Source: a virus (Duplodnaviria > Heunggongvirae > Uroviricota > Caudoviricetes). Taken from it: a stretch of 64,000 bases of DNA. Location: the IMG/VR virus record IMGVR_UViG_3300028797_000097, one strand, 5' to 3'. This document shows positions 2,399 to 47,660 of this stretch, piece after piece (within the stretch, counting starts at the first letter, position 1; each line of letters opens with the position of its first letter). The position numbers were made by a program, and so were the translations under genes. Below the pieces are notes generated by a model. That model made no database searches. It was not told where the DNA came from and saw only the letters and a list, made by a program, of their open reading frames with translations.

Positions 2399-2419
2399 TT
2401 ATATTAAATTCTGAAATTT

Positions 2420-3895
2420 TTAGAAGTATTTGCCACCATCGAAATCAGTTTTTGGTTTTAGACCTTGTTTAGAGACTCTATAATAGTAGTCATAATCGCC
2501 TTCTTTATATTCTTCAGGATTAGAAGTATAGTTTCCTTCTTCATTGAACTGCGAATAATAGGCAGAATATGGAACATTATACTGGTCACGTAAGGTTTTA
2601 TTACCAAAAGAGATTGTTTGGTCGACATTATGACCGAAACCAGATAATGACATATATTCTTTTTCAACAAGCCATTCATTGGTGTATTCAACACCCCAAA
2701 CTTCTGGATTAAAACCAGATGTTATATCTTCTGGGTCTAAATACATTGGTTTATAACCAATAACATCACCTTTCTTGACATGCTGTTCATTTATGATACA
2801 GTCAGCAGATGCATAAATTGGTCGTGTGTGCAAGATTGGTTTATCTCCACTAACTGTTTCTGTAGCAGGAATCCAAATATTTGTTACCTTTGTAAGAAGC
2901 TTTGCATCTTCTTCATAAGTAGTCAATTCATCAGTTTCCCTATAATCATATGTCGTTATGTATGCAGAAGTTTTTATTCCTTTATATTCATACGGGACAA
3001 GTTCAGTCTTTGGATTACCGTTCAATACATAAGTATGACCAACCTTTGTCTGATAAATCTTGCTGAATTCATAAGGAGTAGTTAAAGAACCGTCTTTATT
3101 ACCAAATGTTGCAGCATGATAAAGATAATCTCCTTTATTTAAAGTAATATAGGTATTAATCTTTTCAATAATCTGTGCATCTTTAATCGGCTTATAAAGG
3201 AATGCTTCCATAGTAAAGTTAAACGAAACCTTAATCTGTCTCCAGTCTTCTTCACCCATGGATTCACTTTGAATGTCCCATGTCATAGTTTCAAGTTTCA
3301 TCTTGATACTTCTACGTTTATTGAAGAACCAGAATTCCTTAACATCAAAGAATGCAGCAGGCTGGAATCTTACAGCGATTTGTTCGACAATCTGTTCAGC
3401 ATCTGTCATTTTTTCGCAGTTTGCTTCCATTGAAACAGAAATATTATATGGAACCGGTTGAACATCAGACCAGAACTTATCTTGTTGGTCACATACCAAT
3501 CCAGCATTTTCCAAATCCTTGTTATAGAATGCACGAGTTTCGTAAATGCCTTTTGCTCTTTCAGTTGCAAATTGCATACTATCCAATCTATAAGTAAGAT
3601 TTGGTAAACTTATATAATATTTGTTACCAGATTCTTGTTCAGTTCTGAAGTCATGGGACTTGTTTCTTGGACCGAATTTAATCGGAACATTGATTGTTTT
3701 GACTGGTTCACCGAACTTATTATAACGAATAACTTTCAATTCGTTAAAGAAATTCTCGAACCCGATAAACAGACTACGCATTGTGTCTGCATAGAAATAA
3801 TTTTGAGGATAACCGAAATTAGGAGCTCCATCAGCAGTTCCTTTCCAATATCCATGTAAACTTGGGTCATACCCTTCTTGTGTGTAATTTGCCAT
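2420..3895 (-). CDS. Putative baseplate hub / tail structural protein (491 aa)
   Basis: Long ORF in the structural block upstream of the tape-measure-like gene. No recognisable enzymatic motif. Confidence 0.35.
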   Translation of the reverse strand: MANYTQEGYDPSLHGYWKGTADGAPNFGYPQNYFYADTMRSLFIGFENFFNELKVIRYNKFGEPVKTINVPIKFGPRNKSHDFRTEQESGNKYYISLPNLTYRLDSMQFATERAKGIYETRAFYNKDLENAGLVCDQQDKFWSDVQPVPYNISVSMEANCEKMTDAEQIVEQIAVRFQPAAFFDVKEFWFFNKRRSIKMKLETMTWDIQSESMGEEDWRQIKVSFNFTMEAFLYKPIKDAQIIEKINTYITLNKGDYLYHAATFGNKDGSLTTPYEFSKIYQTKVGHTYVLNGNPKTELVPYEYKGIKTSAYITTYDYRETDELTTYEEDAKLLTKVTNIWIPATETVSGDKPILHTRPIYASADCIINEQHVKKGDVIGYKPMYLDPEDITSGFNPEVWGVEYTNEWLVEKEYMSLSGFGHNVDQTISFGNKTLRDQYNVPYSAYYSQFNEEGNYTSNPEEYKEGDYDYYYRVSKQGLKPKTDFDGGKYF

Positions 3896-3940
3896 AAATA
3901 ACCTTTAATTATATGATATTTATAGAATTTAAAGTCTTTT

Positions 3941-3948
3941 TATAAATA
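3941..3948 (+). promoter_or_regulatory. T4-type late promoter motif TATAAATA, 4 nt upstream of ATG 3953
   Basis: Exact TATAAATA. The same motif recurs immediately upstream of many structural genes in this window. Confidence 0.45.
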
Positions 3949-3952
3949 TATT

Positions 3953-4960
3953 ATGAAATTAAAACTAGTATATAAATGTGAAATTTGTGGATTAAATGAC
4001 TTAAATAAGCGTGGTTTAGGTACACATTTACAATTTAAACATTCTGATATTTCTAAAGAAACATATTATAAAAAATATTTAAAATGTATTGATGAAGATA
4101 CTTGTAAAGTTTGCGGGAAACCAACAAAATTTTTATCATTCAAAGTGGGATTTGCTAATTGCTGTTCAAAAGAATGTAGTAGAAAATGGAATAATAAAAG
4201 AATACAAGATAGTAATTTAGATAAATTTGGGGTTAAAACACCATTTGAGTTAAAAGAAATACAAGAAAAAGTTAAAAATACAATAAAAGAAAAATACAAT
4301 TGTGATAATATATTTCAAGTATCAGAAATAAAAGAAAAAATAAAACGGACATTAAAAGAAAAATATAATGTTGAGTACCCGTTAGAGTGTGAATTTTTTA
4401 AGAATAAAGCAAAAGAAACAACGTTTTTAAGATATGGTAATGAAAATTATAGAAATTCATTAAAAGCAGAAGAAACTTGTTTAAAAAACAACGGGGTTAG
4501 ACATCCGGCACAGTCAGGTATAATTGCGAAAAAAACAAGAAGTAAATATATTTATAATAATATAACATTTGATTCTAGTTGGGAACTTGCATATTATATT
4601 TGGTTAAAAGATCATAATATTAATTTTGAATATCATACAATAAAATTAGAATATGAATTTAATAATAATTTATATTATTATTTTCCTGATTTTTTGGTAG
4701 AAAATGATTTGATAGAAATTAAAGGCGATCAGTTTTTATCGGAAACTGGAAATTTAATTTCACCCTATAAAAATACTAATAATGAAAAATTAATTAAAAA
4801 ATTTGAATGCATGAAAAATAATAATGTAAAAATTATTTCTAAAATAGAAATAAAACCTATTATTTTATATATAAAAGAAAAATATGGAAAAAACTTTTTA
4901 AATAAATTTAGGGAGAAAAATCAGAATGTTTCAGAAAACTGCAGAACTTCGTGGTCATAA
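3953..4960 (+). CDS. Zn-finger / tandem-repeat / PD-(D/E)XK nuclease-like protein. It is either homing-endonuclease-like or a DNA-recognition subunit, and it occupies the TerS position upstream of terL.
   Basis: N-terminal C-x2-C-x12-H-x4-H (YKCEICG...HLQFKH). Tandem repeats of about 30 aa (KEKYN...SEIKEKIKRTLKEKYN). C-terminal motif PDFLVENDLIEIKGD resembling a PD-(D/E)XK core. The stop overlaps the terL start. Confidence 0.45.
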   Translation: MKLKLVYKCEICGLNDLNKRGLGTHLQFKHSDISKETYYKKYLKCIDEDTCKVCGKPTKFLSFKVGFANCCSKECSRKWNNKRIQDSNLDKFGVKTPFELKEIQEKVKNTIKEKYNCDNIFQVSEIKEKIKRTLKEKYNVEYPLECEFFKNKAKETTFLRYGNENYRNSLKAEETCLKNNGVRHPAQSGIIAKKTRSKYIYNNITFDSSWELAYYIWLKDHNINFEYHTIKLEYEFNNNLYYYFPDFLVENDLIEIKGDQFLSETGNLISPYKNTNNEKLIKKFECMKNNNVKIISKIEIKPIILYIKEKYGKNFLNKFREKNQNVSENCRTSWS

Positions 4961-5846
4961 TGAGGTCGTAGAATTAACTAAAGAACAAATGGATGAATAT
5001 GTAAAATGTTCTACAGATATTTTTTATTTTTCCAAATACTTTTATATTTTAAGTGATGAAGGTGAAGCGCCAATACATTTAAGAGAATACCAAGAACGTA
5101 TAGTTCGCTGTCTTGTTGGAAAATATTATGATAAAGAAGGTTCTATTAGAAATAATAGAATAATAATGCAAGGGCGACAGACAGGCAAGACTACTCTGGC
5201 CACATTATATATTTTATGGTATGCACTTTTTAATGGAGACAAAACTATCGCTGTTCTGGCTAACAAGGAAGACCAAGCAAAAGAAATTATGTTGAGAATT
5301 CGCTCAGCTATTTTGAAACTTCCACTTTGGTTACAACAAGGAATTAATCCTGATAGAGGTGGTTGGTCAAAAGAAAGTATCGGTTTTGATAACGGAACTA
5401 AGATATTCTGTGCTGCTTCTGGTTCTTCTGCTATTAGAGGTAAATCTGTTGACTTGATGCTTGTCGACGAATTTGCATTCTTGCCTGAAGAAGAAGCTAA
5501 GGACTTCATTAAGTCTGTTTTCCCTACCCAATCTGGTAGAAAGGATGCTATGATGATTCTTATTTCTACACCGCATGGTATGAATGAATTTTATAACATC
5601 TGGATGAAAGCTATTTCTGGTGCAAGTTCTTATGTTCCTGCAAAGATTCAATGGTATGAAATTCCTGGAAGAGATGAAGCTTGGAAGAAGAGAATGATTC
5701 GAGACTTCGGTATTCAGATGTTCCAACAGGAATATGCTTGTTTAACTGGAGAACATAAAATAACAGTTCGATCCGAGGAAGGAATCGAACTAACGGAACC
5801 GATTTCAAAACTATATGAACTTTGGATGGACGGTTTCTTAAGATAA
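4926..5846 (+). CDS. terL: Terminase large subunit, ATPase domain only (gp17-like N-terminal domain, 306 aa)
   Basis: Walker A QGRQTGKTT, Walker B DLMLVDEFAF, coupling motif ILISTPHG and the FQQEYACL motif match the T4 gp17 ATPase. The ORF stops where the RNase-H-like nuclease domain would start. Confidence 0.8.
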   Translation: MFQKTAELRGHNEVVELTKEQMDEYVKCSTDIFYFSKYFYILSDEGEAPIHLREYQERIVRCLVGKYYDKEGSIRNNRIIMQGRQTGKTTLATLYILWYALFNGDKTIAVLANKEDQAKEIMLRIRSAILKLPLWLQQGINPDRGGWSKESIGFDNGTKIFCAASGSSAIRGKSVDLMLVDEFAFLPEEEAKDFIKSVFPTQSGRKDAMMILISTPHGMNEFYNIWMKAISGASSYVPAKIQWYEIPGRDEAWKKRMIRDFGIQMFQQEYACLTGEHKITVRSEEGIELTEPISKLYELWMDGFLR

Positions 5847-5849
5847 AAA

Positions 5850-5880
5850 TAAAATCACCTTTAAAGGTGATTTTTTATTT
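5850..5880. terminator. Bidirectional rho-independent terminator shared by convergent genes
   Basis: Hairpin atcacc-tttaaa-ggtgat flanked by an A-run and a T-run. The minus-strand stop of gene 5875..6738 lies inside the T-run. Confidence 0.6.
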
Positions 5881-6738
5881 TCGTTTAAACGGATTTAATA
5901 ATTTTGTATATTCATTTTCAGGATAATCTATTGATTTATCAGTAGGTTGATCCTTATATTTTAAATTTTCTACACTATCTATTCTTGTTCTATTTAATTT
6001 TTCTTCCCATTCATCTAATGAACGATGATAATAATGGAACAATCTAATATCACAATTTGATACATTTATTTTTGCTTTTGGTCCTACAACTTTTGGTTCA
6101 AATGTTGTATTATTTGGTAGTGTTACAGGATAATTATTAATAAAATGTGGATATACAAATTTTATATGGTCCATAGTATTTTTTAAAAATCTATGAATAA
6201 ATGGTTTTACATCAACAAATGTTTCTTGATTATATTTTTCACTGACATACTTACAATCATCAATCATTGGTTTTTGTCTTGTTTTTGGTGTTTTAGATGA
6301 TTTATAAGAAATATTTGTTCTAGGAACACCAAATTGATAAATATCATTTTCATTTAATTTTTTTAAATAATCATTTATTGTTTTATATTTTGTTTTATCA
6401 AACCATAGATATTCGTCATCATCACAGAAAAATTGATATGTGTATTTATTATTTGTATTAACATATCTAGTATAATAATATTGTTGAACATTTAAAAATT
6501 TAGATTTATCATATAATAAAACAACATCTACTTTTTCATTATCTTTAAATTTTTCTTTTATATTACAACAATTACTTTCATTATCTACAATAATAATATG
6601 GTCAAATCCACACCAATTTAAATAGTGGTCAACCCATGAATCTATATCGCATTTTTTATATAATTTTGTTATTAATATAACTTCAGAAGAAATTGGTTTT
6701 GTTTTATATGGATTTTTCAATTCACTAGTTCTAAACAT
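5875..6738 (-). CDS. Putative GT-A fold glycosyltransferase
   Basis: HIIIVDNESN (GT2-like nucleotide-sugar binding motif) and an acidic FCDDDEYLW (DXD-like) motif. Confidence 0.35.
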   Translation of the reverse strand: MFRTSELKNPYKTKPISSEVILITKLYKKCDIDSWVDHYLNWCGFDHIIIVDNESNCCNIKEKFKDNEKVDVVLLYDKSKFLNVQQYYYTRYVNTNNKYTYQFFCDDDEYLWFDKTKYKTINDYLKKLNENDIYQFGVPRTNISYKSSKTPKTRQKPMIDDCKYVSEKYNQETFVDVKPFIHRFLKNTMDHIKFVYPHFINNYPVTLPNNTTFEPKVVGPKAKINVSNCDIRLFHYYHRSLDEWEEKLNRTRIDSVENLKYKDQPTDKSIDYPENEYTKLLNPFKRK

Positions 6739-6748
6739 TTTTCACCTA

Positions 6749-7525
6749 TTAAATTACACTTTGATATTGTTCAGCAAAAGTTCTGAAAATTTCAATATAC
6801 ATCTTAATTATATTAACTGTTTCTTTTGCACTGAACTGATTATTCTTAAATCCATCAGAGTCAATAAAATCTATCTTTAATTTGACCGTAGCATATACAG
6901 AACGCTGATTTACTGAATACCCTAGTATATCTATTCTGGAACCATTATCGACGTTCTGGCGCACGTATGGAGCGAAATATTTATTTAATTGCTTAATATA
7001 ACTCTTAACATCTGTATTTATTTCATTACGCATTTCAAAGATTTTAATTTTTAAAACAGCAAAAGCTTCAGTCTTAGTAACTTCGACACCTTTTAAGGCA
7101 CAATTATCAATATTGTGAACTAATAATAAAAGTTGATTTTTTAACAATATATTATCAGCCTTTTTCTTATCGACTTTTATAGTATTCTTTTTAAGCTGTT
7201 CAAGGCAATAATTTGTTGGGACCATCGCATTATAGCCTTCATTGTAAAAATTAACAACAGATTCCATAAGTTCTCTTGGCATCTTAATTATATTATAACC
7301 AAAAGTTCTGACATTTCTTACTATTTTATCATAATATTTTGAAAATTCATTATTTTGAGAATTCTCATTAAGCGAGATAGAAGAACGAATAAAATCAATG
7401 GGGTTAACGTCATTAATATAAGCTTCAAACATTTTTTCCATGTTAAGCTTAACATCTTTATTGAGATGCTTAGCCTTTCTTTCCATAATTTTTTCGACTT
7501 CTTGTTTATAATCTAAAAATTCCAT
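6749..7525 (-). CDS. Hypothetical protein (258 aa), late-promoter driven
   Basis: ORF with TATAAATA about 30 nt upstream on the minus strand (7556-7563). Confidence 0.45.
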   Translation of the reverse strand: MEFLDYKQEVEKIMERKAKHLNKDVKLNMEKMFEAYINDVNPIDFIRSSISLNENSQNNEFSKYYDKIVRNVRTFGYNIIKMPRELMESVVNFYNEGYNAMVPTNYCLEQLKKNTIKVDKKKADNILLKNQLLLLVHNIDNCALKGVEVTKTEAFAVLKIKIFEMRNEINTDVKSYIKQLNKYFAPYVRQNVDNGSRIDILGYSVNQRSVYATVKLKIDFIDSDGFKNNQFSAKETVNIIKMYIEIFRTFAEQYQSVI

Positions 7526-7636
7526 AAGTTTCGTGTCCCAATAGTAGTCTTTTATTATTTATAGTTTAGGGGTTTACAATTATTTTGAAAAATGTTATAT
7601 TTAGGTCAAACACTTAACAAAAAGGAAAAATCATCT

Positions 7637-8413
7637 ATGAAAAAAATCTATTCAATCTTTATTATGTTGGCGTTTGCACTCTTTACGGGTTGTACGACAG
7701 TCGACGAAACCGAAAGAGCAGTTGTTCTTGAATTCGGTAAGTACAGCGAAACTTTCGGACCAGGATTGCACTTCTATAATGTGTTCATGAAGAGCATTGT
7801 TACGATTCCCGTCAAAACACAGCTTGAAGCAAGCACATTCGAAGCAGGTTCTAAGGACCTTCAGCAAGTTGTTGTATCGTCAAACGTTAACTATCACGTA
7901 GATCCGCAAGCAGTTGGTAAGGTATATTCGAATTATGGTGTAAATTATGTTCAGACTATTCTTCAGCCTAAAATTAAGGAAACGGTTACGTCTATTACAC
8001 CACAGTATGTCCCTGAAGAAATGTTGCAGAAGCGAGAAGAAATTAATATTAGAATGAAAAATGCATTGAAGGCAAAGCTTGATTCTGCAGATGCACATAT
8101 TGTTATCGATGGTTTTACTGTAACTGGTTTCCAATTTACTCCTGCATTTAATTCTGCTATTGAAGAAAAGCAGGTTGCAGAACAGAAGGCATTGAAGGAA
8201 AAGAACGTTCTTAAGCAGATTGAATATCAGAATGAACAGAAGGTCGCAAAGGCAAGAGCTGATTCTACCGAAATGGCAATTAAGATGGCAACATTGAAGT
8301 CCCAGTCTGGCAAGGAATACTTGATGCTCAAGTGGATTGAAAAGTGGAATGGTCAGTTGCCGAATATGATGCCTGGTGATAACAAGATTATCCCAATGGT
8401 TAATGGACTTTAA
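7637..8413 (+). CDS. SPFH/band-7 (prohibitin/HflC-like) lipoprotein
   Basis: RBS aaagga is 7 nt before ATG 7637. Signal peptide MKKIYSIFIMLAFALFTGC with a Cys lipobox. SPFH core (VVLEFGKYSETFGPGLHF...). The annotated 7592 start overlaps a promoter-like repeat. Confidence 0.7.
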   Translation: MKKIYSIFIMLAFALFTGCTTVDETERAVVLEFGKYSETFGPGLHFYNVFMKSIVTIPVKTQLEASTFEAGSKDLQQVVVSSNVNYHVDPQAVGKVYSNYGVNYVQTILQPKIKETVTSITPQYVPEEMLQKREEINIRMKNALKAKLDSADAHIVIDGFTVTGFQFTPAFNSAIEEKQVAEQKALKEKNVLKQIEYQNEQKVAKARADSTEMAIKMATLKSQSGKEYLMLKWIEKWNGQLPNMMPGDNKIIPMVNGL

Positions 8414-30726: not shown

Positions 30727-31218
30727 ATGATAGTAATCGCTTGGACGATTGTTGGTTTAACTGCACTTTTCATTATCTGCAGCTGCATAAAGAGTTGCGT
30801 CAGAATGGCAACAATGGAACGCTTTAAAAACGTTCCCATTCAGACACCTACCTTAATTGCAGATAAGAATAAGATTATTCAGTCATTATTTGATGATGAC
30901 GCTGAAAAGTTTTTCAAATATAAAGGTATAACATTCTGGTATTATAAGGATTCAAAGGATTACTTTGAAAAGCAGAGTTTTAGTGTTGCTGATGTAAAGA
31001 ATAAGATTGCACAGAAGTATGATGAACTCAAACAAGAACATCCAGGAATTACAGATTTTTTTGTTTCCATGACAAAACAAAATAATTATTTGACATGGGA
31101 ATTTGATCCGATTGACTTAAACTCTTATGTTCCGCCAAAGTCAACTAAGGATATTTGTATCGATGAGCTTAACAAATTAATAGAAAACAATGAAATAAAG
31201 GAAAAACATGACATCTAA
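30727..31218 (+). CDS. NfeD/YuaF-like membrane protein partner of flotillin
   Basis: N-terminal TM helix followed by a soluble domain of about 130 aa. It is immediately upstream of and overlapping the flotillin gene, as in the host yuaF-floT / yqiJ-yqiK operons. Confidence 0.4.
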   Translation: MIVIAWTIVGLTALFIICSCIKSCVRMATMERFKNVPIQTPTLIADKNKIIQSLFDDDAEKFFKYKGITFWYYKDSKDYFEKQSFSVADVKNKIAQKYDELKQEHPGITDFFVSMTKQNNYLTWEFDPIDLNSYVPPKSTKDICIDELNKLIENNEIKEKHDI

Positions 31219-32806
31219 TATGATCTACCCAATACTTATCGGAATTGCAGTAATTGCTTTAAGTATTCTCTTTTTTGCGTCTTATATCAAAGCCGCACCA
31301 GATGAAGTTAAAATCATCTCTGGTTTCCGACAACTAAGGACAATTATCGGACATTCAGGATTTAGAATTCCGTTCCTTGAGCAAGTCGATACTTTAAGCT
31401 TAAAGCTTATTCCAATCGATGTTAAGACCTCCGGTATTCCAACGTCAGATTATATTAATATCGCAGTTGATGCAGTCGTTCAGGTCAAAATTTCTGATGA
31501 AACTGCTGATATTAAGGTTGCTGCACAGAACTTCTTAAATAAGAATCCAGATGAAATTAAGAAGATGATTAGTGAAGTTCTTGAAGCAAACATGAGAGAG
31601 ATTGTTGGTCAAATGGAACTTGTCAAGCTTGTTAATGACAGACAACAGGTTTCTAAGAAGGTTCTCGAAAATGCTTCTCCAGACTTAAAGAAACTCGGTA
31701 TTGTTATTCAAACATTTAATATTCAGAACTTCTCTGATTCAGCAAAGGTTATTGAAAACCTCGGTGTTGACAAGGCAGTTGCAATTCAGAAAGCAGCAGC
31801 AATTTCTAGGGCCAATGCAGAAAGAGACGTTAAGATTGCTCAGGCAGAAGCAGCTAAGGAAGCAAACGATGCACAGGTTGCATCTAACCTCGAAATCGCA
31901 CAGAAGCAAAACGACTTAGAAGTTAAGAAGGCTGACCTTAAGAGAATTTCCGATAGCAAGAAGGCTGAAGCTGATGCCGCTTACGAAATTCAGAAGCAAG
32001 AACAGCAAAAGACCATTAACATTGCAGCTGCAGCAGCTGAAGTTGCAAAGCAGGAAAAACAGATTGAAATTCGTGAAAGAATGGTAGCTGTTAGACAGAA
32101 GGAACTCGAAGCTGAAATCCAGAAGAAGGCAGAAGCAGAAAAGCAAGCACAAATTCAGAAGTCTGATGCTGACCTTTATAGACAACAGAAGGAAGCTGAA
32201 GCAGCACTCTTCACACAGAAGCAACAGGCTGAAGCTATTAAGGCTAAGGCTGAAGCTGATAAGCAAAAAGCATTCGCTGAAGCTGCAGCAACTAAGGCTA
32301 AGGGTGAAGCAGAAGCTGATGCTGTAAAGGCTAAGGGTCTTGCAGAAGCAGCAGCACTTGACCAGAAGGCTGAAGCTATGAAGAAGTATGGTGATGCAGC
32401 AAGACAGGAAATGCAGCTCAGAACTATTGAAAAGTATTTCGAACAGTTACCAGCTATTGCAAGTGCCGTTGCAAAACCGATGGAAAAGATTGGCAATATC
32501 AATATGTATGGTGAAAGCGGTACAGCTAAGCTCACTGGCGATATTACCAAGACACTTACACAAGTTTCTAGTGGTTTAACTGATTCTCTTGGTATTGATC
32601 TTAAGACTGTTCTCGGTTCTATGTTCGGTGCACATCTTGCTGGACTCGAAAAGAAACCGTCGCAGGTCCCTGTTGAAGTTGCAAAGAACGATCCAGCAGT
32701 TCCAGCTACCCCAGCTCAGGCTACTCCAGTAGAATCTCCGGTTCAAATGTCTGAATCTGATATTGAACAGGCAGCAGCAGCATTTCTTAGAAAGCGTAAG
32801 CACTAA
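31208..32806 (+). CDS. Flotillin-like SPFH protein (FloT/YqiK-like, 532 aa)
   Basis: N-terminal TM segment, SPFH domain and a long A/E/K-rich flotillin-type coiled-coil (AEAEKQAQIQK...KAEADKQKAFAEAAATKAKGEAEADAVKAKG). Confidence 0.85.
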   Translation: MTSNMIYPILIGIAVIALSILFFASYIKAAPDEVKIISGFRQLRTIIGHSGFRIPFLEQVDTLSLKLIPIDVKTSGIPTSDYINIAVDAVVQVKISDETADIKVAAQNFLNKNPDEIKKMISEVLEANMREIVGQMELVKLVNDRQQVSKKVLENASPDLKKLGIVIQTFNIQNFSDSAKVIENLGVDKAVAIQKAAAISRANAERDVKIAQAEAAKEANDAQVASNLEIAQKQNDLEVKKADLKRISDSKKAEADAAYEIQKQEQQKTINIAAAAAEVAKQEKQIEIRERMVAVRQKELEAEIQKKAEAEKQAQIQKSDADLYRQQKEAEAALFTQKQQAEAIKAKAEADKQKAFAEAAATKAKGEAEADAVKAKGLAEAAALDQKAEAMKKYGDAARQEMQLRTIEKYFEQLPAIASAVAKPMEKIGNINMYGESGTAKLTGDITKTLTQVSSGLTDSLGIDLKTVLGSMFGAHLAGLEKKPSQVPVEVAKNDPAVPATPAQATPVESPVQMSESDIEQAAAAFLRKRKH

Positions 32807-32919: not shown

Positions 32920-33795
32920 TTGTTATTGATTATGAGAACAATCCAGACAATACAAAATCAATATGATAATATCATGAAGCCATTAGTATGGTCGGATAAA
33001 GTTGCAAAGAATTTTTTGAATTGTATAAAAAATCCAATTGTAGTAGAAAAGAAAGACATGATACCGCAATGGAAGATTTGTACTGTTAGCGACACTAAAA
33101 GACGAACTGAAAGTATTGGTTCTACTGATGTTTTAATTTTAGATTATGATGATCCGAATTATAGCATAAAGGAATTTGAAGATAGTTTTAGAGAATATTT
33201 CTATGTATTACATACTTCACATTCTTATGATGGAACAAACCAGAAGTTCAGAGTATTTTTGTTTCTTGATAAAGAATATGATATAAATAGAATGTTTTAT
33301 AAATGTTTTAATCAAGCATTTAGTCCATATCATTTTCTTGTAAATTATTTTCCACATGCAGATAAGGCATCATTCGTTAGAGCACAGTTCTTTAAGGTTC
33401 CTTGTGTAAAATATAAAGGTGCACCTTATTATTACAGTTGTCATAACGGTAAGTTATTTGACCCTGCTAGTGCAATCGGGTTTGAATTTAGAATGGCTTA
33501 TGAATATTGTGTAGAGAAACAAGAAGAACATCTTAAGCAACTTGAAAAACGAGCAAAATGGTATCGCAAGATGCATGGTTCAATCGATTTAACGAATGCA
33601 AAACAATATATAAATGAAAAGATTGAAACATGTGAAGCTGGTGGTAGACATATGCAGATTTTAGGTCTGGCATGTTGGTTTAAGAAGATTGGCGGAACGT
33701 TTAAAGAATTTGAGGAAATAATGCCATCATGGGCTGATAAAGGTTTCCATAAACAGATGGAACATATTAGACATGAATGGGATAGATTTAGGTAA
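32920..33795 (+). CDS. Archaeo-eukaryotic-type primase (Prim-Pol, BT4734-like) with a C-terminal PriCT-1 domain
   Basis: hhhDhD motif VLILDYDD, sxH motif YVLHTSHSYDG.NQKFRVFLFL and a PriCT-1-like GGRHMQILGLACWFKKIGGTFKEFEEIM. Confidence 0.55.
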   Translation: MLLIMRTIQTIQNQYDNIMKPLVWSDKVAKNFLNCIKNPIVVEKKDMIPQWKICTVSDTKRRTESIGSTDVLILDYDDPNYSIKEFEDSFREYFYVLHTSHSYDGTNQKFRVFLFLDKEYDINRMFYKCFNQAFSPYHFLVNYFPHADKASFVRAQFFKVPCVKYKGAPYYYSCHNGKLFDPASAIGFEFRMAYEYCVEKQEEHLKQLEKRAKWYRKMHGSIDLTNAKQYINEKIETCEAGGRHMQILGLACWFKKIGGTFKEFEEIMPSWADKGFHKQMEHIRHEWDRFR

Positions 33796-33797
33796 GT

Positions 33798-34583
33798 ATG
33801 AAAGACGTATATCAACAATTATGGGAAGCATTCAGTGATATATATTTCGAAGAAGTTCCGCACAAATATACAGATAGTTACGGAACGAAATATACATCAG
33901 TTACTACATTTGTCGGTCAACTTGAAGTAGAAAAAGACTGGGACTTAATTGCAGAAAAAGCAATTAAAAAGAAAGACAGTCAATATAAGGGAATGACTGT
34001 GGAACAAGTCAGAGCAGCCTGGAAAGCTTCAGGCGACTATGCTTGTCAGTTAGGAACTTATGTCCATAGTGTTATGGAACTTGGTTGGCAAAATAAGGAA
34101 TTTTATCCTGATGAGAATGTTCTTGCAAAATATCCTGGAATGAAGGAAGATTTTGAATATAGAAAACAAAGATGTAAGAAAGCTTTGTCTATTTTGAAAG
34201 AACGTTATATTCCCATCAAGAATGAAACAATTGTTTATGACCGTGACTGGCAGTTGTGTGGAACTATTGACTTCTTATGTTATAATAAAGTAAAGAATTG
34301 TATTGCAATCCTTGACTGGAAGACAAACAAGAAATGGGATTTTAACAATAGGTATCAGAAACTTAGAGCTCCGTTCGATATGATGGACGATTGTAATATT
34401 AACCATTATGAGTTACAGTTAAATACCTATAAGGCAATTTTAGAGAAACATACGGATATTAAAGTTGGTGAAATGTTATTGGTTCAAATTCCAAATAAAG
34501 AAAAGGAATTAATCGAAACACATCAATGTAAGGATTGGCAAAAAGTTTTAGTTCCGTATTTAGACAGTTTACACAAAAAATAA
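33798..34583 (+). CDS. PD-(D/E)XK exonuclease (YqaJ / lambda-Exo / Cas4-like)
   Basis: GTIDFLCY...IAILDWKTNKK (D...D/E-x-K) followed by a QxxxY motif (YELQLNTYKAILEK). Confidence 0.55.
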   Translation: MKDVYQQLWEAFSDIYFEEVPHKYTDSYGTKYTSVTTFVGQLEVEKDWDLIAEKAIKKKDSQYKGMTVEQVRAAWKASGDYACQLGTYVHSVMELGWQNKEFYPDENVLAKYPGMKEDFEYRKQRCKKALSILKERYIPIKNETIVYDRDWQLCGTIDFLCYNKVKNCIAILDWKTNKKWDFNNRYQKLRAPFDMMDDCNINHYELQLNTYKAILEKHTDIKVGEMLLVQIPNKEKELIETHQCKDWQKVLVPYLDSLHKK

Positions 34584-39177: not shown

Positions 39178-42100
39178 ATGAAAAAGATAATCGGAATATT
39201 ATTAGTTTTAGCTGCATTTGTTTTTTCTGCAGACTATAAGCCGTTTAACTTTGAAACTATCCCACAAGATTCTGCAAGTCAACAGGATCAATTTGATTAT
39301 ATGCTTCAATATAAGTTATATGGTCATGATTTTATCAAAATGGGAAATGATGTTCGTATTCCAGACAAGTCAGGTTGGAATGGTACTGTAGGTAATATTA
39401 CTTCTAATGCAAGATTGACCTTGGGCGGTCCGATTCTTGCAAATGGTAGTATTTCTATGGGTGATGGTCCAAATAATATTACTGGACCAGTTCGCTCAGT
39501 CGATTTTGATCTTGGAAATGTAAATAATTCCAAAATCGCAAGCCCTGTTTGCTTAAGCGGAACCGCAAATGCTAATGCATTGTCTGCGATTGAAGATCAT
39601 AAGACTTATTCTTTCGATGCAAACATTTGTAAGGACAGCGTTCCTGCTGCACCTACAAATCTTTATATGCCGATTGTTGATTGGGATAATCTTGGTGCTG
39701 ATGTTAAGTTGGATGATATTGTTTTAAGTGGCAATGATGCTACAGATACTATTTTTGTTCCTAAAGGTGAAGGCGCATATAAGATTTTAATTGATAAGAT
39801 TCAGTTTGGCCTTGGCGGAACTAATGCAAGCCATTTGTATGTTAAGATGCAAGATGGCGGTAGATTGACCCAGATTTTCGTAAAGAATTTTATTTATGGA
39901 AATCATGCTACAATTCAGGTTGTTTATGATACTGACAGTGGAAGCGTAGTATTGAATCAGGACCAATATCGTGGTAACTTGATGTTCTATTCTAATAATG
40001 TTATCAGTTTTGATAATATGGACTATGCTCCTATTCAAGGTTCATTTATTTCTACTGATTCAATTTTCTTGGGAAGAAACGTTAATATTTCTGGTCAGTT
40101 ATTGACTAATAAGCTTGAAATTGGAAATGATATTGATGGTAAAAACTTCAGATTTGTTAAATTCGACCCTGATACAATCGATGTTAAGCTTGATAAGTAT
40201 GGTGGTTTGAGAGAAAATGATTCTACTGTTATTATTCCTATTGAACTAAGTGATACTGCTACTATCGCTGTATATTTTAGATATTGTTTTGATTTGAAAG
40301 ATGGTGTAACTGTTGAAGATTTTAATATTCCGCCTACATTCCCTATTTGTAACATCGATCAACCGAAAGAAGTATCTATTCCTATCGGTTCAAAGATTCC
40401 AAGTGATCCAATTAAGGTAAATGTTAAAGTCGATACATTGACAGAAAATGAATATCTTGTAATTAAGATTGATAGCATTTCTGGTGCTATTCTTCCTGAT
40501 GGTAAGACTGAAGGAGAATTAAAGATTAAGATTATTGACGCTCCTATTGGACATGTTGAATTTGATACTACAAAGACATATGAGTTTGAGGAAAATAAAC
40601 TTGGTGAAGTAGATGTAATCAAGATTTTAAATGGAACTGAAAATACTCGTTTCCATCTTGATAGTGCATATACTGATAGATATGAATTGGATAGCTTGAC
40701 TGGTAAGTTGACACTTATTGGTGAACCATTAGATTATGAAAAGGCTGCAATCGATGTTATTAAGGTTACATTGACTGATACTGGCAATGTAAGTGTAACT
40801 CGTAATATTCCTATTACAGTAATTGACGTTAATGAAGCACCTACTATCGATGATGTAACTGCTAATCTTCCGGAAAATCTTATTCATCCATTCATGGTTG
40901 AAAAGTTAGTTGCAAAAGATCCAGATACTAAGACAACATTTACTCAAAATGTTTTCAGTATGCTTGAAGGTGATACAAGCTTATTTAGAGTAGATTCTGA
41001 TGGTGAAATTTGGGCAAAGAAGACATTTGACTATGAAACTGATCAGAAAACCTATACTTTGAAGGTTTTGGTTCATGATAAGACTAATCCAGCATTGAAG
41101 GATAGTGCTATTGTTACTGTTAATATCACAAACAGCAATGATGGTCCTAAGTTTGACAGAAATGATACTACATTCCATGTAAATGAAAATGAACCATTTA
41201 AGGATAGTGTAAAGGCAACTGACCAGGATGGTGATAAGATTACTTATTCTATCATTGGAAGTGTTCCATTCAAAATTGATTCTACTGGCGTAATTACTTC
41301 TACTAGAACATTTGACTATGAAAAAGAAAAAGAATTTACATTCAAGGTCATTGCTGATGATGGTAAAGCAAAAGATACAATGACTGTAAATATTATAGTA
41401 GACAATGTAAATGAGCCTGTTCATACCAAAGATACAACTTTTGTTGTAGATGAAGGTAAAACTGGTGAAATCGGTAAAGTCAAAGGAGAAGATGAAGATG
41501 GAAAGCCTGTTAAATTTTCTTGCGATGATAGTGTGCATTACAGCATCGATACTAATACTGGTATTCTTAGACTGGTAGACCCATTTGACTATGAGATTAC
41601 AAAATCTGATACCATAAAGGTATTTGTTACTGATAGTCTATTTACAGATACTGCCATAGTTATTATTAATGTTAATAATGTAAATGAACCTCCTGTATTA
41701 CAGCCAAATGATTCTCTTACAGTTCCAGAAAATTGTAAGAATTGTATTGTTGGTATTATTACAGCAGTTGACCCTGACAGTGATAAGGTAATTTACGAAG
41801 TTAAGGAACCTGGTTTCACAATCGATACAAATGGAGTATTAAAGCTCACTGATCCTCTTGATTATGAGAAAACTCCAGAAGTTAAGATTACAGTTATTGC
41901 AAAGGATTCTAGTGGCGCAGCTGATACTGCCACCTATATAATTAAGATAACTGATATTAATGAACCAGTCCATGTTCAAGATACAACTTGTTCTGTAAAG
42001 GAAAATTATACTGGTAAGGTTTGCAAGATTACAGCAACTGATGAAGATAAAACAACTCCTAAATATATAATTACCGATACTACAAATTATTCTATCGATT

Positions 42101-43986
42101 CTACTGGTGTAATTACTATTAAGAACCCGATTGATTATGAAAAGAAGACTAAGGACACAGTAACTGTTATTGTAACTGATGACGAATTTTCTGATACCGC
42201 ACAGGTAATTATCAGAGTTCTCGATGAACCTGAAAAGGTTGAAATTACCACATGGGATGATGAAAAGCCTAAAGATACAGTAAAGACAAATGACCCAGAT
42301 CATAAGTTCGAATGGGAACTTTGTGAAGGTGATAGCTGTATTAAGCATGAAGAATTTCCGCATATCAAGAAAGATACAACTATCAAGGTATGTAATGATA
42401 AGAAGACTGTTTGTGATTCAGTTGTAGTTTTATTCAATGATGCACCTCCAGTTGTTACTTTGACAAATGCAAAGTCTACTGATGCATTGATTGACTATAT
42501 TACAATCGAAGAACAGAAGGACGATAAGATTTATGTCAACAAGAAAGAAAATCCAATTACTGTAACTGTTAGAGATACTGTTCATAAGACAGAAAAGAAA
42601 TTTGATATTAAAGTTAAGCTTGATACAATTCCTACTAAGGATATTAAGATTAAGGAATATAACTACTTGATTGATGAATCTCTTGCAACTCATACAGCAA
42701 TAGGTAACAATCTTATTGAAGTTTCTGAAGTTATTTCTGTTGACGGTAATAAGATAACAATTTCTAAGATTGTTGATAAGAAGACAATGGAACCAATCGA
42801 TACAGTTCAAACTGTTACTTATCATAAGAAGGTTGGTGGTAAGGACGTAGTTGTTTCTTATAAGACTGATAATCTTACTGGTCAGAGAGTTTCTGATTAT
42901 GAAATTTCTTACATGGCTGATTCTTGCACTAAGGTTACATATACTGTAAATGATAAGAAGGAAATTGTTAAGAATAAGGAAGGAAATATTGCATATAATA
43001 TCACTTATGATTATGTAGATGATTTTGGTAACAAAGCATCTGCATCAGTTGAAATTATCTTCGACGATATTCCGCCTAAGGTTGAAATTCTTGGACCTGG
43101 TCCAATGGAACATTTCAATACAAATGCAATTCCAGTTAAGTGGACAGTTAATGGCGAAACACAAGATACTTTGACATTACAGAGACTTGAAAAAGGTGTT
43201 AACTATATTATCAGAAGATATGTAGATAAGGCTGGTAACGTCGCTGCTGATACAGTCACAGTTCTTATGAATGAAGCCAAGGATATTGATATTGAAATTA
43301 TCAATCCAGTAACCAAGGTTGACCAGGATAAAGTTGATGAATATTATTCTGAAGGTCATAAGTATAATGATAAGAAACCGTTTGACGTCAAGTTTGTTGA
43401 CCCGAAGAACGATACAATTCCAGATGTAATTGGTGTTGGTTTCAAGGTTGATATTGTACTTCCGTCTGTTTCTCCTACTGGTTCTCTTGCAACATTGGAT
43501 GACATTGTAAAGAATGGTCAGATTCCAGTTGATGATAAGGGAAATATCGTTGGTGCTTCTACAAAGGGAATTCCAGTAGATAAGTATGTTGAAGAACATT
43601 GTACTGAAGAATTCCAGAAGGATTACGATAAGTATGGTTTGAATATTCCGCTTTATGACGTTACTTATAAACTTCATCTTTGGGTATATACAACTACTGC
43701 AAACTATGTAAATGATTTTAATATTGAATTTACATTGAATGATGAAGCTAAGACTACTACAGCAGGAACTGTCCAGATGGTTATCGACTGGTTGTCTGAT
43801 AAGGATGGAAACGTCAAGGCTAAGAACCATCATGCTTTAGGAACAGGCGCATATATAACCAAGTTGTTCAGCACTTCTGTTGCAAAACACCGTTGTGATT
43901 ATAAGGATCAAGTTAAGGGTGATAGAACTGTAAAGAAGGATGAAACAATGAAAACATTTGGTTATAAGCGACCAAACAACAAGTAA
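39178..43986 (+). CDS. Giant secreted cadherin-repeat protein (1602 aa)
   Basis: Sec signal peptide MKKIIGILLVLAAFVFSADYK. Multiple repeats of about 100 aa ending in cadherin-type linkers (VIDVNEAPTI, NSNDGPKF, VDNVNEPVH, VNNVNEPPV, ITDINEPVH). Confidence 0.7.
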   Translation: MKKIIGILLVLAAFVFSADYKPFNFETIPQDSASQQDQFDYMLQYKLYGHDFIKMGNDVRIPDKSGWNGTVGNITSNARLTLGGPILANGSISMGDGPNNITGPVRSVDFDLGNVNNSKIASPVCLSGTANANALSAIEDHKTYSFDANICKDSVPAAPTNLYMPIVDWDNLGADVKLDDIVLSGNDATDTIFVPKGEGAYKILIDKIQFGLGGTNASHLYVKMQDGGRLTQIFVKNFIYGNHATIQVVYDTDSGSVVLNQDQYRGNLMFYSNNVISFDNMDYAPIQGSFISTDSIFLGRNVNISGQLLTNKLEIGNDIDGKNFRFVKFDPDTIDVKLDKYGGLRENDSTVIIPIELSDTATIAVYFRYCFDLKDGVTVEDFNIPPTFPICNIDQPKEVSIPIGSKIPSDPIKVNVKVDTLTENEYLVIKIDSISGAILPDGKTEGELKIKIIDAPIGHVEFDTTKTYEFEENKLGEVDVIKILNGTENTRFHLDSAYTDRYELDSLTGKLTLIGEPLDYEKAAIDVIKVTLTDTGNVSVTRNIPITVIDVNEAPTIDDVTANLPENLIHPFMVEKLVAKDPDTKTTFTQNVFSMLEGDTSLFRVDSDGEIWAKKTFDYETDQKTYTLKVLVHDKTNPALKDSAIVTVNITNSNDGPKFDRNDTTFHVNENEPFKDSVKATDQDGDKITYSIIGSVPFKIDSTGVITSTRTFDYEKEKEFTFKVIADDGKAKDTMTVNIIVDNVNEPVHTKDTTFVVDEGKTGEIGKVKGEDEDGKPVKFSCDDSVHYSIDTNTGILRLVDPFDYEITKSDTIKVFVTDSLFTDTAIVIINVNNVNEPPVLQPNDSLTVPENCKNCIVGIITAVDPDSDKVIYEVKEPGFTIDTNGVLKLTDPLDYEKTPEVKITVIAKDSSGAADTATYIIKITDINEPVHVQDTTCSVKENYTGKVCKITATDEDKTTPKYIITDTTNYSIDSTGVITIKNPIDYEKKTKDTVTVIVTDDEFSDTAQVIIRVLDEPEKVEITTWDDEKPKDTVKTNDPDHKFEWELCEGDSCIKHEEFPHIKKDTTIKVCNDKKTVCDSVVVLFNDAPPVVTLTNAKSTDALIDYITIEEQKDDKIYVNKKENPITVTVRDTVHKTEKKFDIKVKLDTIPTKDIKIKEYNYLIDESLATHTAIGNNLIEVSEVISVDGNKITISKIVDKKTMEPIDTVQTVTYHKKVGGKDVVVSYKTDNLTGQRVSDYEISYMADSCTKVTYTVNDKKEIVKNKEGNIAYNITYDYVDDFGNKASASVEIIFDDIPPKVEILGPGPMEHFNTNAIPVKWTVNGETQDTLTLQRLEKGVNYIIRRYVDKAGNVAADTVTVLMNEAKDIDIEIINPVTKVDQDKVDEYYSEGHKYNDKKPFDVKFVDPKNDTIPDVIGVGFKVDIVLPSVSPTGSLATLDDIVKNGQIPVDDKGNIVGASTKGIPVDKYVEEHCTEEFQKDYDKYGLNIPLYDVTYKLHLWVYTTTANYVNDFNIEFTLNDEAKTTTAGTVQMVIDWLSDKDGNVKAKNHHALGTGAYITKLFSTSVAKHRCDYKDQVKGDRTVKKDETMKTFGYKRPNNK

Positions 43987-45188: not shown

Positions 45189-47660
45189 ATGATTAAAAAC
45201 GTAATTAAGCGAGATAATCGCAGACGAAAATTCAACATTGCAAAAGTATATACAGCCATAGAAAATGCATTTAAATCAATAAATGAAAAATATACAGAAG
45301 AAGGTATAGACCAATTAGTTGATGAAGTAGTCGAGAAGATTTCCGCAAATGATGCCAAGTCAGCAAGAGTTGAAGATATTCAGAATGTTATTGAAAAGAC
45401 ATTGATGAATAGCGGATTCGGAACAGTTGCTAAGGCATTTATTTTATATAGAGACGAACGTAACCGTGCACGTGAAACAAAATCAGAAATTGTAAAGACC
45501 ATTAAGGAAATTACAGAGTCTGATATTAAAAGTTCGAATATTTTAAGAGACAATGCAAACGAATCTGGTGCTACTCCTGCTGGAACATACGGTAAGATTG
45601 CATCTGAAACGAATAAGATGTATAACCTGTTGAATAACATCAACAGAAAGTATGCACAGGAACATAAGGACGGACATTTACATATCCATGACCTTAACCA
45701 GTATAATTTGACATTCAACTGCTTGTTTGCTCCAGTTGGAAAGTTATTGAAGAACGGTTTTGACTCTGGAACTGGTTTCTTACGTTCCCCGAAGTCAATC
45801 CAGACTGCAGCAGCATTGACAGCAGTTATTCTTCAGCTCCAGTCCAACCAGCAATATGGTGGTATCGCTGATGATAATCTCGATTTTGATTTAGCACCGT
45901 TTGTCGATATTTCATTTAGAAAGAATCTTAAGGAAGAATTAGAAAGATATATAGAATATAATCCAGATCATGAAGAAATGACCAATCTTGATGAAGTTGC
46001 AACAGCTTCTATGAACTGGCCTTCTGCACTTCTTTATACTAAGTTCCCTAAGATTTGTGTTATTAAGGCAATTCAGAAGACAGATGATGATACACATCAG
46101 GCTATGGAAGGTCTTATTGGTAATTTGAATTCTTTACAGTCTCGTTCTGGAAACCAAGTTCCATTTAGTTCTTTGAACTTCGGTCTTAATACTTCTAATT
46201 GTGGTCGTATGATTAGCAAGAATCTTATTAAGTCTCAGATGGAAGGTCTCGGTGACGGATTGACAGCAATTTTCCCAATCTTGATTTTCAAGTTGATGGA
46301 AGGTTACACAAAGAATCCAGAAGATCCTAACTATGATTTGTATCTCGACTCTATTAAGTGTCTTGCTCGTAGATTCTACCCGAACTTTGTAAAGGTCGAT
46401 AGTTCCTTCAATAAGCCATACATCAAGTATGAAACTAAGGAAGTTGAAATTCTTGAAAATGTTATTGGTGTTAAGGTTCGTGGTAAAGATGAAGCAACAA
46501 TTATCCCAATGCAAGACCAGAAGTTTGATAAGTTTGTCTATCAGTATGATGTAGGTCAAGGTGACTATTGGGAAATTGAAGAAATTTCTGGAAATAAGTT
46601 GAAGTTGAAGAAACTCATTGAAAATACAACTATTTCTACTATGGGTTGTAGAACCAGAGTTATTGGTAATATCAATGGTGCTGAACAGACAACTGGTAGA
46701 GGTAACTTTGCATTCCATACAATTAACCTTCCTAGACTTGCTATTGAAGCTCATATCGCAGCAAAGGATGAAGAAGAACGTAAGACTATTTTCTTCGAAA
46801 AGCTTGCTGAAATGCTTGAAGATGCAAAGGGAAGTTTGCTTGACAGATTCGCATTGATTTCTAACAAGACATATGAGAATTTCCCATTTACTATGCAACA
46901 GGGTCTTTATCTCACATCTGATGACCAACCGCATGAAGTTACTGATAAGATTGGTGAAGTTCTTAAACAGGCTTCGTTGTCAATCGGTTACGTCGGTCTT
47001 GCTGAAACCATGTTACTCTTGACAGGTAAGACTTATGGTGTTGACCATGAAATTGATGATTATGCTTTCTCTATTGTAAAGACTATTCGTGAATTTGTTG
47101 ATAAGACACAGAAGGAAACTCATTTGAACTGGTCTTGTTTCGCTACTCCAGCTGAAGCAGTTGCAGGTCGTTTTGCTAACATCGATAAAAATCTTTTCCA
47201 GAATGAAAAGAAGCTTGCTGATGTAGATTTACAGAGAGTCTTCGGTAAGGGTTATTACACAAATAGCCACATGCTTGATTATTCTTTGGAAACTACTCTT
47301 GAAAACAAGATTAAGATGGAAGCTCCATATCACAAGATTACAAATGCTGGTCATATCTTCTATTACAAGTTGAATGGTGACTTGTCTAAGAATCTTGAAG
47401 CGGTCAAGGCAACTATTGATGCCATGTATGAAGGTGACCTTGGTTATTTCACTTGCACATTTGACAGTGATACTTGTACTAAGTGCCATTTCCATGGAAT
47501 CATCAATAATGAATGTCCATGTTGTGGTAACAAGAATGAAGACGAGATTATTCGTGTTAGAAGAATTACCGGATATTTGACTGGTTCTCCTAAGAAGACT
47601 ATTTTTAAGTCTTGGAATGATGGAAAATTAGCAGAATTGAGAGACCGTCATAATATTTAA
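45189..47660 (+). CDS. nrdD: Anaerobic ribonucleoside-triphosphate reductase NrdD (class III, glycyl-radical)
   Basis: ATP-cone N-terminus. C-terminal Zn ribbon CTKCHFHG...CPCCG and glycyl-radical motif RVRRITGYL. Confidence 0.9.
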   Translation: MIKNVIKRDNRRRKFNIAKVYTAIENAFKSINEKYTEEGIDQLVDEVVEKISANDAKSARVEDIQNVIEKTLMNSGFGTVAKAFILYRDERNRARETKSEIVKTIKEITESDIKSSNILRDNANESGATPAGTYGKIASETNKMYNLLNNINRKYAQEHKDGHLHIHDLNQYNLTFNCLFAPVGKLLKNGFDSGTGFLRSPKSIQTAAALTAVILQLQSNQQYGGIADDNLDFDLAPFVDISFRKNLKEELERYIEYNPDHEEMTNLDEVATASMNWPSALLYTKFPKICVIKAIQKTDDDTHQAMEGLIGNLNSLQSRSGNQVPFSSLNFGLNTSNCGRMISKNLIKSQMEGLGDGLTAIFPILIFKLMEGYTKNPEDPNYDLYLDSIKCLARRFYPNFVKVDSSFNKPYIKYETKEVEILENVIGVKVRGKDEATIIPMQDQKFDKFVYQYDVGQGDYWEIEEISGNKLKLKKLIENTTISTMGCRTRVIGNINGAEQTTGRGNFAFHTINLPRLAIEAHIAAKDEEERKTIFFEKLAEMLEDAKGSLLDRFALISNKTYENFPFTMQQGLYLTSDDQPHEVTDKIGEVLKQASLSIGYVGLAETMLLLTGKTYGVDHEIDDYAFSIVKTIREFVDKTQKETHLNWSCFATPAEAVAGRFANIDKNLFQNEKKLADVDLQRVFGKGYYTNSHMLDYSLETTLENKIKMEAPYHKITNAGHIFYYKLNGDLSKNLEAVKATIDAMYEGDLGYFTCTFDSDTCTKCHFHGIINNECPCCGNKNEDEIIRVRRITGYLTGSPKKTIFKSWNDGKLAELRDRHNI

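Follow-up and report, generated by a model that had tools for sequence, protein, structure and literature searches.

Atypically split inteins in the terminase large subunit (TerL) of T4-like phages have reportedly been described by Thiel et al. 2014, Bachmann & Mootz 2015 and Stevens et al. 2018 (PDB 6DSL). The locus analyzed here lies in a 64,000-nucleotide stretch of Caudoviricetes DNA from IMG/VR (record IMGVR_UViG_3300028797_000097; 'the window' below is this whole stretch at its full length), in which a short terL gene at 4926..5846 is overlapped at its 5' end by a gene for a zinc-finger and PD-(D/E)XK nuclease protein at 3953..4960. There is strong reason to think that TerL is encoded in two pieces in this phage, with the N-terminal half (terL-N) and the N-terminal fragment of a split intein (IntN) in the window and the partner elsewhere, and that the upstream gene is a separate, selfish homing endonuclease gene (HEG).

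Among the closest described systems, the GOS gp17-like terminase split intein was characterized as 'fractured at an unusual point' (Dassa et al., 2009, PMC2677866). AceL-TerL and GOS-TerL, with IntN fragments of 25 and 37 amino acids (aa), trans-splice in vitro, and Cat represents the consensus of their family (PMC11766414). The order of a 'fractured gene' is that of an N-half with IntN, a freestanding HEG, and a C-half preceded by the C-terminal intein fragment (IntC), all adjacent and on one strand, and step IV of the accompanying model is a 'genomic uncoupling' (Dassa et al., 2009, PMC2677866).

The present locus shares with GOS-TerL, AceL-TerL and Cat a T4-type TerL host in which the insertion point separates the ATPase domain from the nuclease domain and immediately precedes C(E/S)F(L/I)GS. 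Also shared are a short IntN that contains block A only (35 aa in the window versus 25-37 aa) and the nucleophile Cys1; relatives add a long IntC (~101-125 aa) with blocks B, F and G, and the nucleophile Cys+1. It differs in that the window sequence comes from another phage clade whose nearest unsplit TerLs are 41-43% identical, in that the present sequences are too diverged for a single-sequence match to CatC, and in that the genomic context is visible here, with the halves uncoupled and, in relatives, tens of kb apart. The cyanobacterial split DnaE intein (for example Ssp and Npu DnaE) is alike in that two distant genes encode an essential enzyme whose parts are rejoined by trans-splicing, but it has a canonical split site, with an IntN of ~100-123 aa and an IntC of ~36 aa, and it resides in a cellular host with no associated HEG.

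The N-terminal half of TerL and its tail

The open reading frame (ORF) at 4926..5846 on the + strand encodes 306 aa and matches Pfam Terminase_6N over aa 79-275 (E = 2.5e-20) as well as the PHROG terminase large subunit families, in agreement with a first-pass annotation made from the sequence alone, which had placed a terL ATPase domain there. A tblastn search with this ORF against 50,697 phage records returns 2,593 TerL genes with a maximum identity of 43%, and nearly all of these alignments terminate at query residue 272. The top match is the full-length T4-like TerL of Pelagibacter phage Mosig (43% identity). Homology to it breaks off at FQQEYA, the boundary between the ATPase and nuclease domains, where Mosig itself reads FQQEFE-CEFLGSVNTLIS into the nuclease domain; in unsplit TerL the residue that follows the junction is the Cys of CEFLGS. 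The first-pass annotation had the ORF stopping right after FQQEYACL. The end of homology at the domain boundary stands, whereas the immediate stop does not, since 35 further residues follow in frame with the ATPase domain, beginning CLTGEHKITV and ending FLR. The terminator and convergent gene that it reported beyond terL are both present. The features of this part of the locus are:

4926..5738, + strand: TerL N-extein, the gp17-type packaging ATPase domain (aa 1-271, ending ...FQQEYA), assigned by Pfam, PHROG and the comparison with Mosig
5739..5846, + strand: putative split-intein N fragment (IntN), Cys272-Arg306, 35 aa plus stop, CLTGEHKITVRSEEGIELTEPISKLYELWMDGFLR, with block A (N1) only, assigned by the conserved Cys1, purifying selection and the profile match described below
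5851..5874, both strands: bidirectional hairpin resembling an intrinsic terminator, ending both terL-N and the convergent glycosyltransferase gene
5875..6738, - strand: family-2 glycosyltransferase gene, convergent with terL-N

Conservation of the tail was evaluated on the best 120 of 488 homologues of the N-half, which are 53-92% identical to it. Every one of these 120 is itself an N-half of at most 359 aa, and no full-length TerL is among them. The junction residue is Cys in all 118 of those that are full-length N-halves, and in these the tail that follows the junction measures 30-76 aa with a median of 35. Its pattern, C-[LIC]-x-G-x-x-x-[VI]-x-[VI]...G......[IL]..[LIV]Y, is that of intein block A and the first beta-strands. 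Purifying selection acts on the tail among nine close relatives, where its pN/pS is 0.21 versus 0.14 for the extein. No exact record of the window's TerL-N protein occurs in the contig collection searched.

Some N-halves of this clade (P0007, P0072 and P0110, and L018 and L076 at 411-424 kb; L numbers denote fetched loci) are carried by contigs of 400-680 kb. Such contigs far exceed typical T4-like genomes in size and might represent jumbo phages, concatemers or chimeric assemblies.

C-halves in relatives and the proposed joining of the two pieces

The Mosig nuclease domain served as the query in a screen of ~100 related IMG/VR loci for the counterpart of the N-half. In locus L084, a 348-aa ORF adjoins the N-half in divergent orientation. 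It reads MLIKCGEEW...KCTPDHIF...VYTPLNVDGEYYQTTNGLINHN/CSFLGSSQTLI, where the slash marks the junction, with an IntC that ends in NGLINHN and a Terminase_6C domain behind it. A database search with this ORF yields 90 proteins, nearly all of 344-400 aa with PF17289, and a precomputed match to PF14890 (Intein_splicing) is present on three of the 90. The alignment of C-halves is invariant at D37 and H38 (the block B Asp-His), N101 (the terminal Asn) and C102 (Cys+1), and nearly all of the proteins have the HN/C junction. The layout in relatives is thus an IntC of ~101 aa containing the block B DH, followed by the Terminase_6C nuclease domain.

Eight IMG/VR contigs carry both halves. On IMGVR_UViG_3300037455_000543, the N-half at ~185.5 kb is 87% identical to that of the window and the C-half lies at ~239.8 kb, ~54 kb away. 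Joining the window N-extein to the C-extein of this contig in silico gives a 522-aa product that aligns with full-length Mosig TerL collinearly and without a gap at the junction (E = 1e-107). The comparison of terL in relatives for intein or split organization, proposed in the first-pass annotation, therefore finds N-halves with IntN and separate C-halves with IntC, and it locates ORFs that combine IntC with a gp17-type nuclease domain on the same contigs as N-halves. The alternative that the annotation had offered, a homing endonuclease next to a split terL whose nuclease domain is encoded elsewhere, gains support from these results; the split-intein nature of the arrangement had escaped it.

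A profile built from seven fused IntN+IntC sequences and searched against PDB matches 6dsl_B, 'Consensus engineered intein CatC', with E = 1e-5, aligning profile positions 36-138 to chain residues 14-111. The matches that come after CatC are the gp41-1, Spl DnaX, Pho RadA, NrdJ-1 and VidaL inteins. The TerL of Nitratidesulfovibrio phage SRB7757 (Desulfovibrio/Nitratidesulfovibrio) was considered as a case of an intein at the same site and was rejected, its intein lying at Walker B. The record, which carries no annotation (L002 2872-4947, PV062637.1), codes for a 691-aa TerL with a contiguous intein, FIDE/CVTGDT...TSHN/CAF.

Several results count against a TerL divided by a split intein in this genome. 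The two PDB entries listed highest for the fused profile are spurious matches to repeat proteins without a significant stretch, a single fused intein sequence has no match in Pfam or PDB, and IntN alone has none in PDB. No C-half is found in the 64-kb window by tblastn with the Mosig TerL C-domain or with the C-halves of L084 and L119. When the window is extended outward to overlapping contigs via exact 29-mers, a C-half is also absent from the contigs reaching 7.4 kb to the left (overlap 100% identical) and 9.5 kb to the right (97.5% identical).

Other searches around the missing piece gave similar outcomes. A regular expression for the intein C-terminus, HN[CST], applied to the six frames of the window retrieves nothing convincing, the extension contigs do not overlap with any C-half locus, and the window holds no homologues of the genes that neighbor the L119 C-half. 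A weak tblastn match at 33067-33360 (E = 0.07) was examined as a candidate C-half and dropped, its ORF having no Pfam family. Because relatives carry C-halves, the C-half of this very genome presumably exists outside the window.

Under the two-piece model, the window would supply the first piece, consisting of the ATPase domain (aa 1-271) and, as the N fragment of an atypically split intein, the 35-aa tail. The second piece, ~350 aa by analogy, would be encoded elsewhere and would consist of a ~101-aa IntC with blocks B, F and G and a His-Asn end, then Cys+1 and the RNase-H-like nuclease domain. Once both pieces are translated, IntN would dock into IntC and thereby complete the Hint fold, and protein trans-splicing would join ...FQQEYA to C(S/E)F(L/I)GS..., giving a normal TerL of ~520 aa that unites the ATPase domain and the nuclease domain.

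We infer from conserved catalytic positions that this splicing does occur. The two halves might instead associate through their intein fragments without splicing, to form a non-covalent heterodimer in which the intein serves as a dimerization module. Certain nucleophile combinations do leave some split-intein relatives slow or inactive (PMC11766414). This arrangement is nonetheless improbable, as Cys1 is found in 118 of 118 N-halves, the block B Asp-His and Cys+1 are invariant and the penultimate His and terminal Asn occur in nearly all C-halves, and the characterized AceL-TerL, GOS-TerL and Cat all splice (PMC11766414).

The upstream endonuclease gene

The gene in front of terL-N and the elements associated with it are listed below, with L010 serving as the reference for the insertion:

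3953..4960, + strand: freestanding homing-endonuclease-like gene, 335 aa, assigned by DUF7487, PHROG, conserved residues, an AF2 model and presence/absence in relatives
3951..4933, + strand: 983-bp insertion relative to L010, which has 36 bp there, identified by blastn
3941..3948, + strand: T4-type late promoter motif TATAAATA, now in front of the HEG, identified by motif scan
4926..5345, + strand: first ~420 nt of terL-N, a divergent stretch that accompanies the HEG and resembles a co-conversion tract

The ORF overlaps terL by 35 nt. Its product has a C2H2 finger at aa 9-30 and a C4 zinc ribbon at aa 51-75, followed by the helical repeats of DUF7487 (~aa 77-195) and, at ~aa 197-320, a PD-(D/E)XK nuclease domain. 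It matches Pfam DUF7487 (PF24308) with E = 8e-19 and PHROG 3339 and 12131 at 1e-17 and 1e-15, respectively; both PHROG families are annotated as homing endonuclease, and the family as a whole numbers at least 752 members and occurs at many loci. In an alignment of 45 family sequences, C9/C12/H25/H30 of the C2H2 finger and C51/C54/C71/C75 of the C4 ribbon are nearly invariant. Within the active site, E211...P-D246...E255-x-K257, residues E211, D246 and K257 are invariant in the same alignment and E255 is nearly so. Three repeats of ~25-30 aa are mutually similar, the r2-r3 similarity being exceeded by none of 300 shuffles and that of r1-r2 by one of 300. The AF2 model has a pLDDT of 88 and matches PD-(D/E)XK folds, and the product lacks the E-D-x-H-D motif with a His general base that marks EDxHD/Vsr-like enzymes such as I-Bth0305I. 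The overlap, late promoter motif, C2H2 finger, ~30-aa repeats and PD-(D/E)XK residues had all been recognized correctly in the first-pass annotation. No mention of DUF7487 was found in the literature.

Comparison with close relatives shows the gene to be an insertion. By blastn, window 2400-3950 corresponds to L010 2697-4250 and window 4934-8400 to L010 4287-7755, and L010 is 96% identical to the window in both flanks, yet has no HEG. L011 and L012 likewise lack it, and L010-L012 are otherwise 84-96% identical to the window over the aligned flanks. In L003-L005 a 48-aa ORF remains that is 82% identical to the first 44 residues of the HEG product; this decayed remnant at the HEG site (L003 2866-3012, and also in L004 and L005) retains the N-terminal C2H2 finger only. 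In L009 this intergenic space holds a HEG homologue of 33% identity, encoded on the opposite strand.

The TATAAATA motif has 27 matches in the window versus 14.6 expected. As it is also found upstream of terL-N in the HEG-less L010, L011 and L012, it is terL's own late promoter, behind which the HEG has landed. The beginning of terL-N is itself mosaic. Differences from L010 per 60 nt of terL-N are 18, 6, 14, 20, 18, 7, 6, 3, 0, 2, 2, 2, 2, 0, 1 and 1, so that identity to the HEG-less L010 and L011 is 79% over terL nt 1-420 and 97-98% over nt 421-918. Within this 5' tract the closer relatives are the HEG-bearing L009 (87%) and the remnant-bearing L003 (84%). As far as the pattern of substitutions indicates, the mosaic looks like what co-conversion during homing produces. 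The HEG would accordingly have inserted between the terL late promoter and the start codon, bringing with it ~420 nt of donor terL, and would stand outside the packaging machine. The endonuclease probably cuts HEG-less alleles.

Contigs from the same population (L180, L181, L022 and L023; 99.6-100% identical to the window) break at window positions 3847 and 5325, the edges of the insertion and the divergent tract, with L022 and L023 starting at 5325. Apparently, HEG-plus and HEG-minus variants occur side by side in the same samples and interrupt assembly at these points. Contigs of 99.6-100% identity are present in the IMG samples 3300028914, 3300028887 and 3300031998.

The gene resembles those of the freestanding phage homing endonucleases T4 Seg and Mob and of the PD-(D/E)XK homing endonucleases I-Ssp6803I and I-Bth0305I, in that it is intergenic, of sporadic occurrence and placed beside an essential conserved gene, with a linked donor-type flanking tract and a modular combination of a DNA-binding part and a nuclease domain. 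The first-pass annotation had preferred another role, in which TerL is permanently reduced to its ATPase and the upstream protein, in the position of the terminase small subunit (TerS), replaces both TerS and the nuclease domain by recognizing and cleaving DNA in trans. The protein does have DNA-binding modules and what appears from its residues to be an intact PD-(D/E)XK site, and its gene is co-transcribed with terL-N from the late promoter. A TerS homologue is also not detected in the window, either by Pfam, PHROG and NCBIfam or with Mosig gp16 and the L162 upstream ORF as queries. However, a TerS gene would be conserved upstream of terL in all relatives, whereas 3953..4960 is absent from the closest ones. 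Because the gene is missing in L010-L012, reduced to a 48-aa stub in L003-L005 and replaced by a homologue on the opposite strand in L009, it cannot be an essential packaging component. Relatives moreover encode a normal gp17-type nuclease domain behind IntC, the 35-aa tail with its invariant Cys1 would be left without a role, and the protein belongs to a large family, dispersed over many loci, that is annotated as homing endonuclease. Cleavage in trans by this protein is therefore contradicted by the distribution of the gene and by the C-halves of relatives, and it retains very little probability.

The idea that 4926..5846 derives from an ordinary terL, whether as a pseudogene or through frameshift, truncation or misassembly, can practically be dismissed. 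Metagenomic contigs of the population do break near the locus, but the 296-359-aa architecture recurs at 53-92% identity in over 100 protein clusters that were assembled independently (NCBI, ENA, JGI, Logan), the ORF is under purifying selection with a terminator and convergent gene directly after it, and every frame of the window is free of a nuclease-domain remnant.

Fractured relatives and genomic setting

A local HMM scan of all fetched loci for members of the HEG family finds them adjoining terL-N in 27 loci besides the window. A family ORF lies directly downstream of terL-N, in the fracture position, in about 18 of 84 loci and upstream in one of 70, with the window itself excluded. The distant relative L162 has the following arrangement, all on the same strand:

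3356-3892: possible TerS
3892-4797: terL-N with IntN
4884-5885: Zn-finger/DUF7487 endonuclease
5869-7008: IntC and the C-half of terL

L164 has the same one-strand order of terL-N, endonuclease and terL C-half at 3552-6921, again with a possible TerS in front. Its N-half carries an extra Hint-like insertion within the ATPase domain. The L162 endonuclease shares the Zn-finger/DUF7487 module of the window protein and has a different C-terminal domain. An HNH domain was noticed there by eye only and was set aside, as Pfam gave no confirmation.

The components of the window are those of the fractured gene described by Dassa et al., and L162 and L164 show its exact order, with N-half, HEG and C-half adjacent on one strand. 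The window differs in that its HEG lies upstream of terL-N rather than in the fracture and its C-half is not adjacent, and the HEG is neither GIY-YIG nor Vsr-like/EDxHD. In terms of the Dassa model, the window fits the stage of 'genomic uncoupling', combined with a secondary insertion of an HEG at the opposite flank of terL-N.

The remainder of the window is that of a T4-like myophage fragment with a G+C content of ~31%, and its gene set includes gp15, UvsW, UvsX, a gp41-type helicase, gp32 and NrdD. The NrdD gene (45189..47660, + strand) encodes an anaerobic ribonucleotide reductase (823 aa) that has an ATP-cone plus an additional insertion and in which no intein is evident on inspection by eye; because NrdD is present, the host is likely to be anaerobic. 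The glycosyltransferase gene behind terL-N is variable: L010-L012 and L022 have it (56-99% identical), whereas L003-L005 and L009 do not, and in this second group the 258-aa gene directly follows terL-N. The window also carries two SPFH/Band 7 genes (7592..8413 and 31208..32806, both + strand), the second also with a flotillin domain, which are unusual cargo for a T4-like phage. A 1602-aa protein with four cadherin-type repeats is encoded at 39178..43986 (+ strand). A second, unrelated PD-(D/E)XK protein (33798..34583, + strand; Pfam PDDEXK_1, E = 8.5e-7) lies inside the replication/recombination block.

A broader evolutionary scenario can be sketched, although the whole chain taken together is rather unlikely. 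The Zn-finger/DUF7487 family, with interchangeable nuclease domains (PD-(D/E)XK here, HNH-like in L162), may have fractured terL at the unusual point between block A and block B in the ancestor of a large T4-like clade with apparently anaerobic hosts, and may still be homing into both flanks of terL-N. Uncoupling of the halves would then have made TerL assembly dependent on trans-splicing, which would act as a post-translational checkpoint on the start of packaging.

Both elements of the locus, a split-intein TerL half and a freestanding HEG, are of known kinds, and no new mechanism is involved. The apparent anomaly of a packaging motor without a nuclease is thereby removed. The locus is a clean natural example of a freestanding HEG with its co-conversion tract, and it connects DUF7487, an uncharacterized family of Pfam, with homing at a gene that bears a split intein. 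New IntN/IntC pairs from these phages could serve as further short-IntN split inteins for protein labeling. The locus also provides a natural genomic context for a class of split inteins known mainly from metagenome fragments and protein engineering, in which a whole clade of T4-like phages appears to make its essential terminase only by trans-splicing, from halves that are often tens of kb apart.

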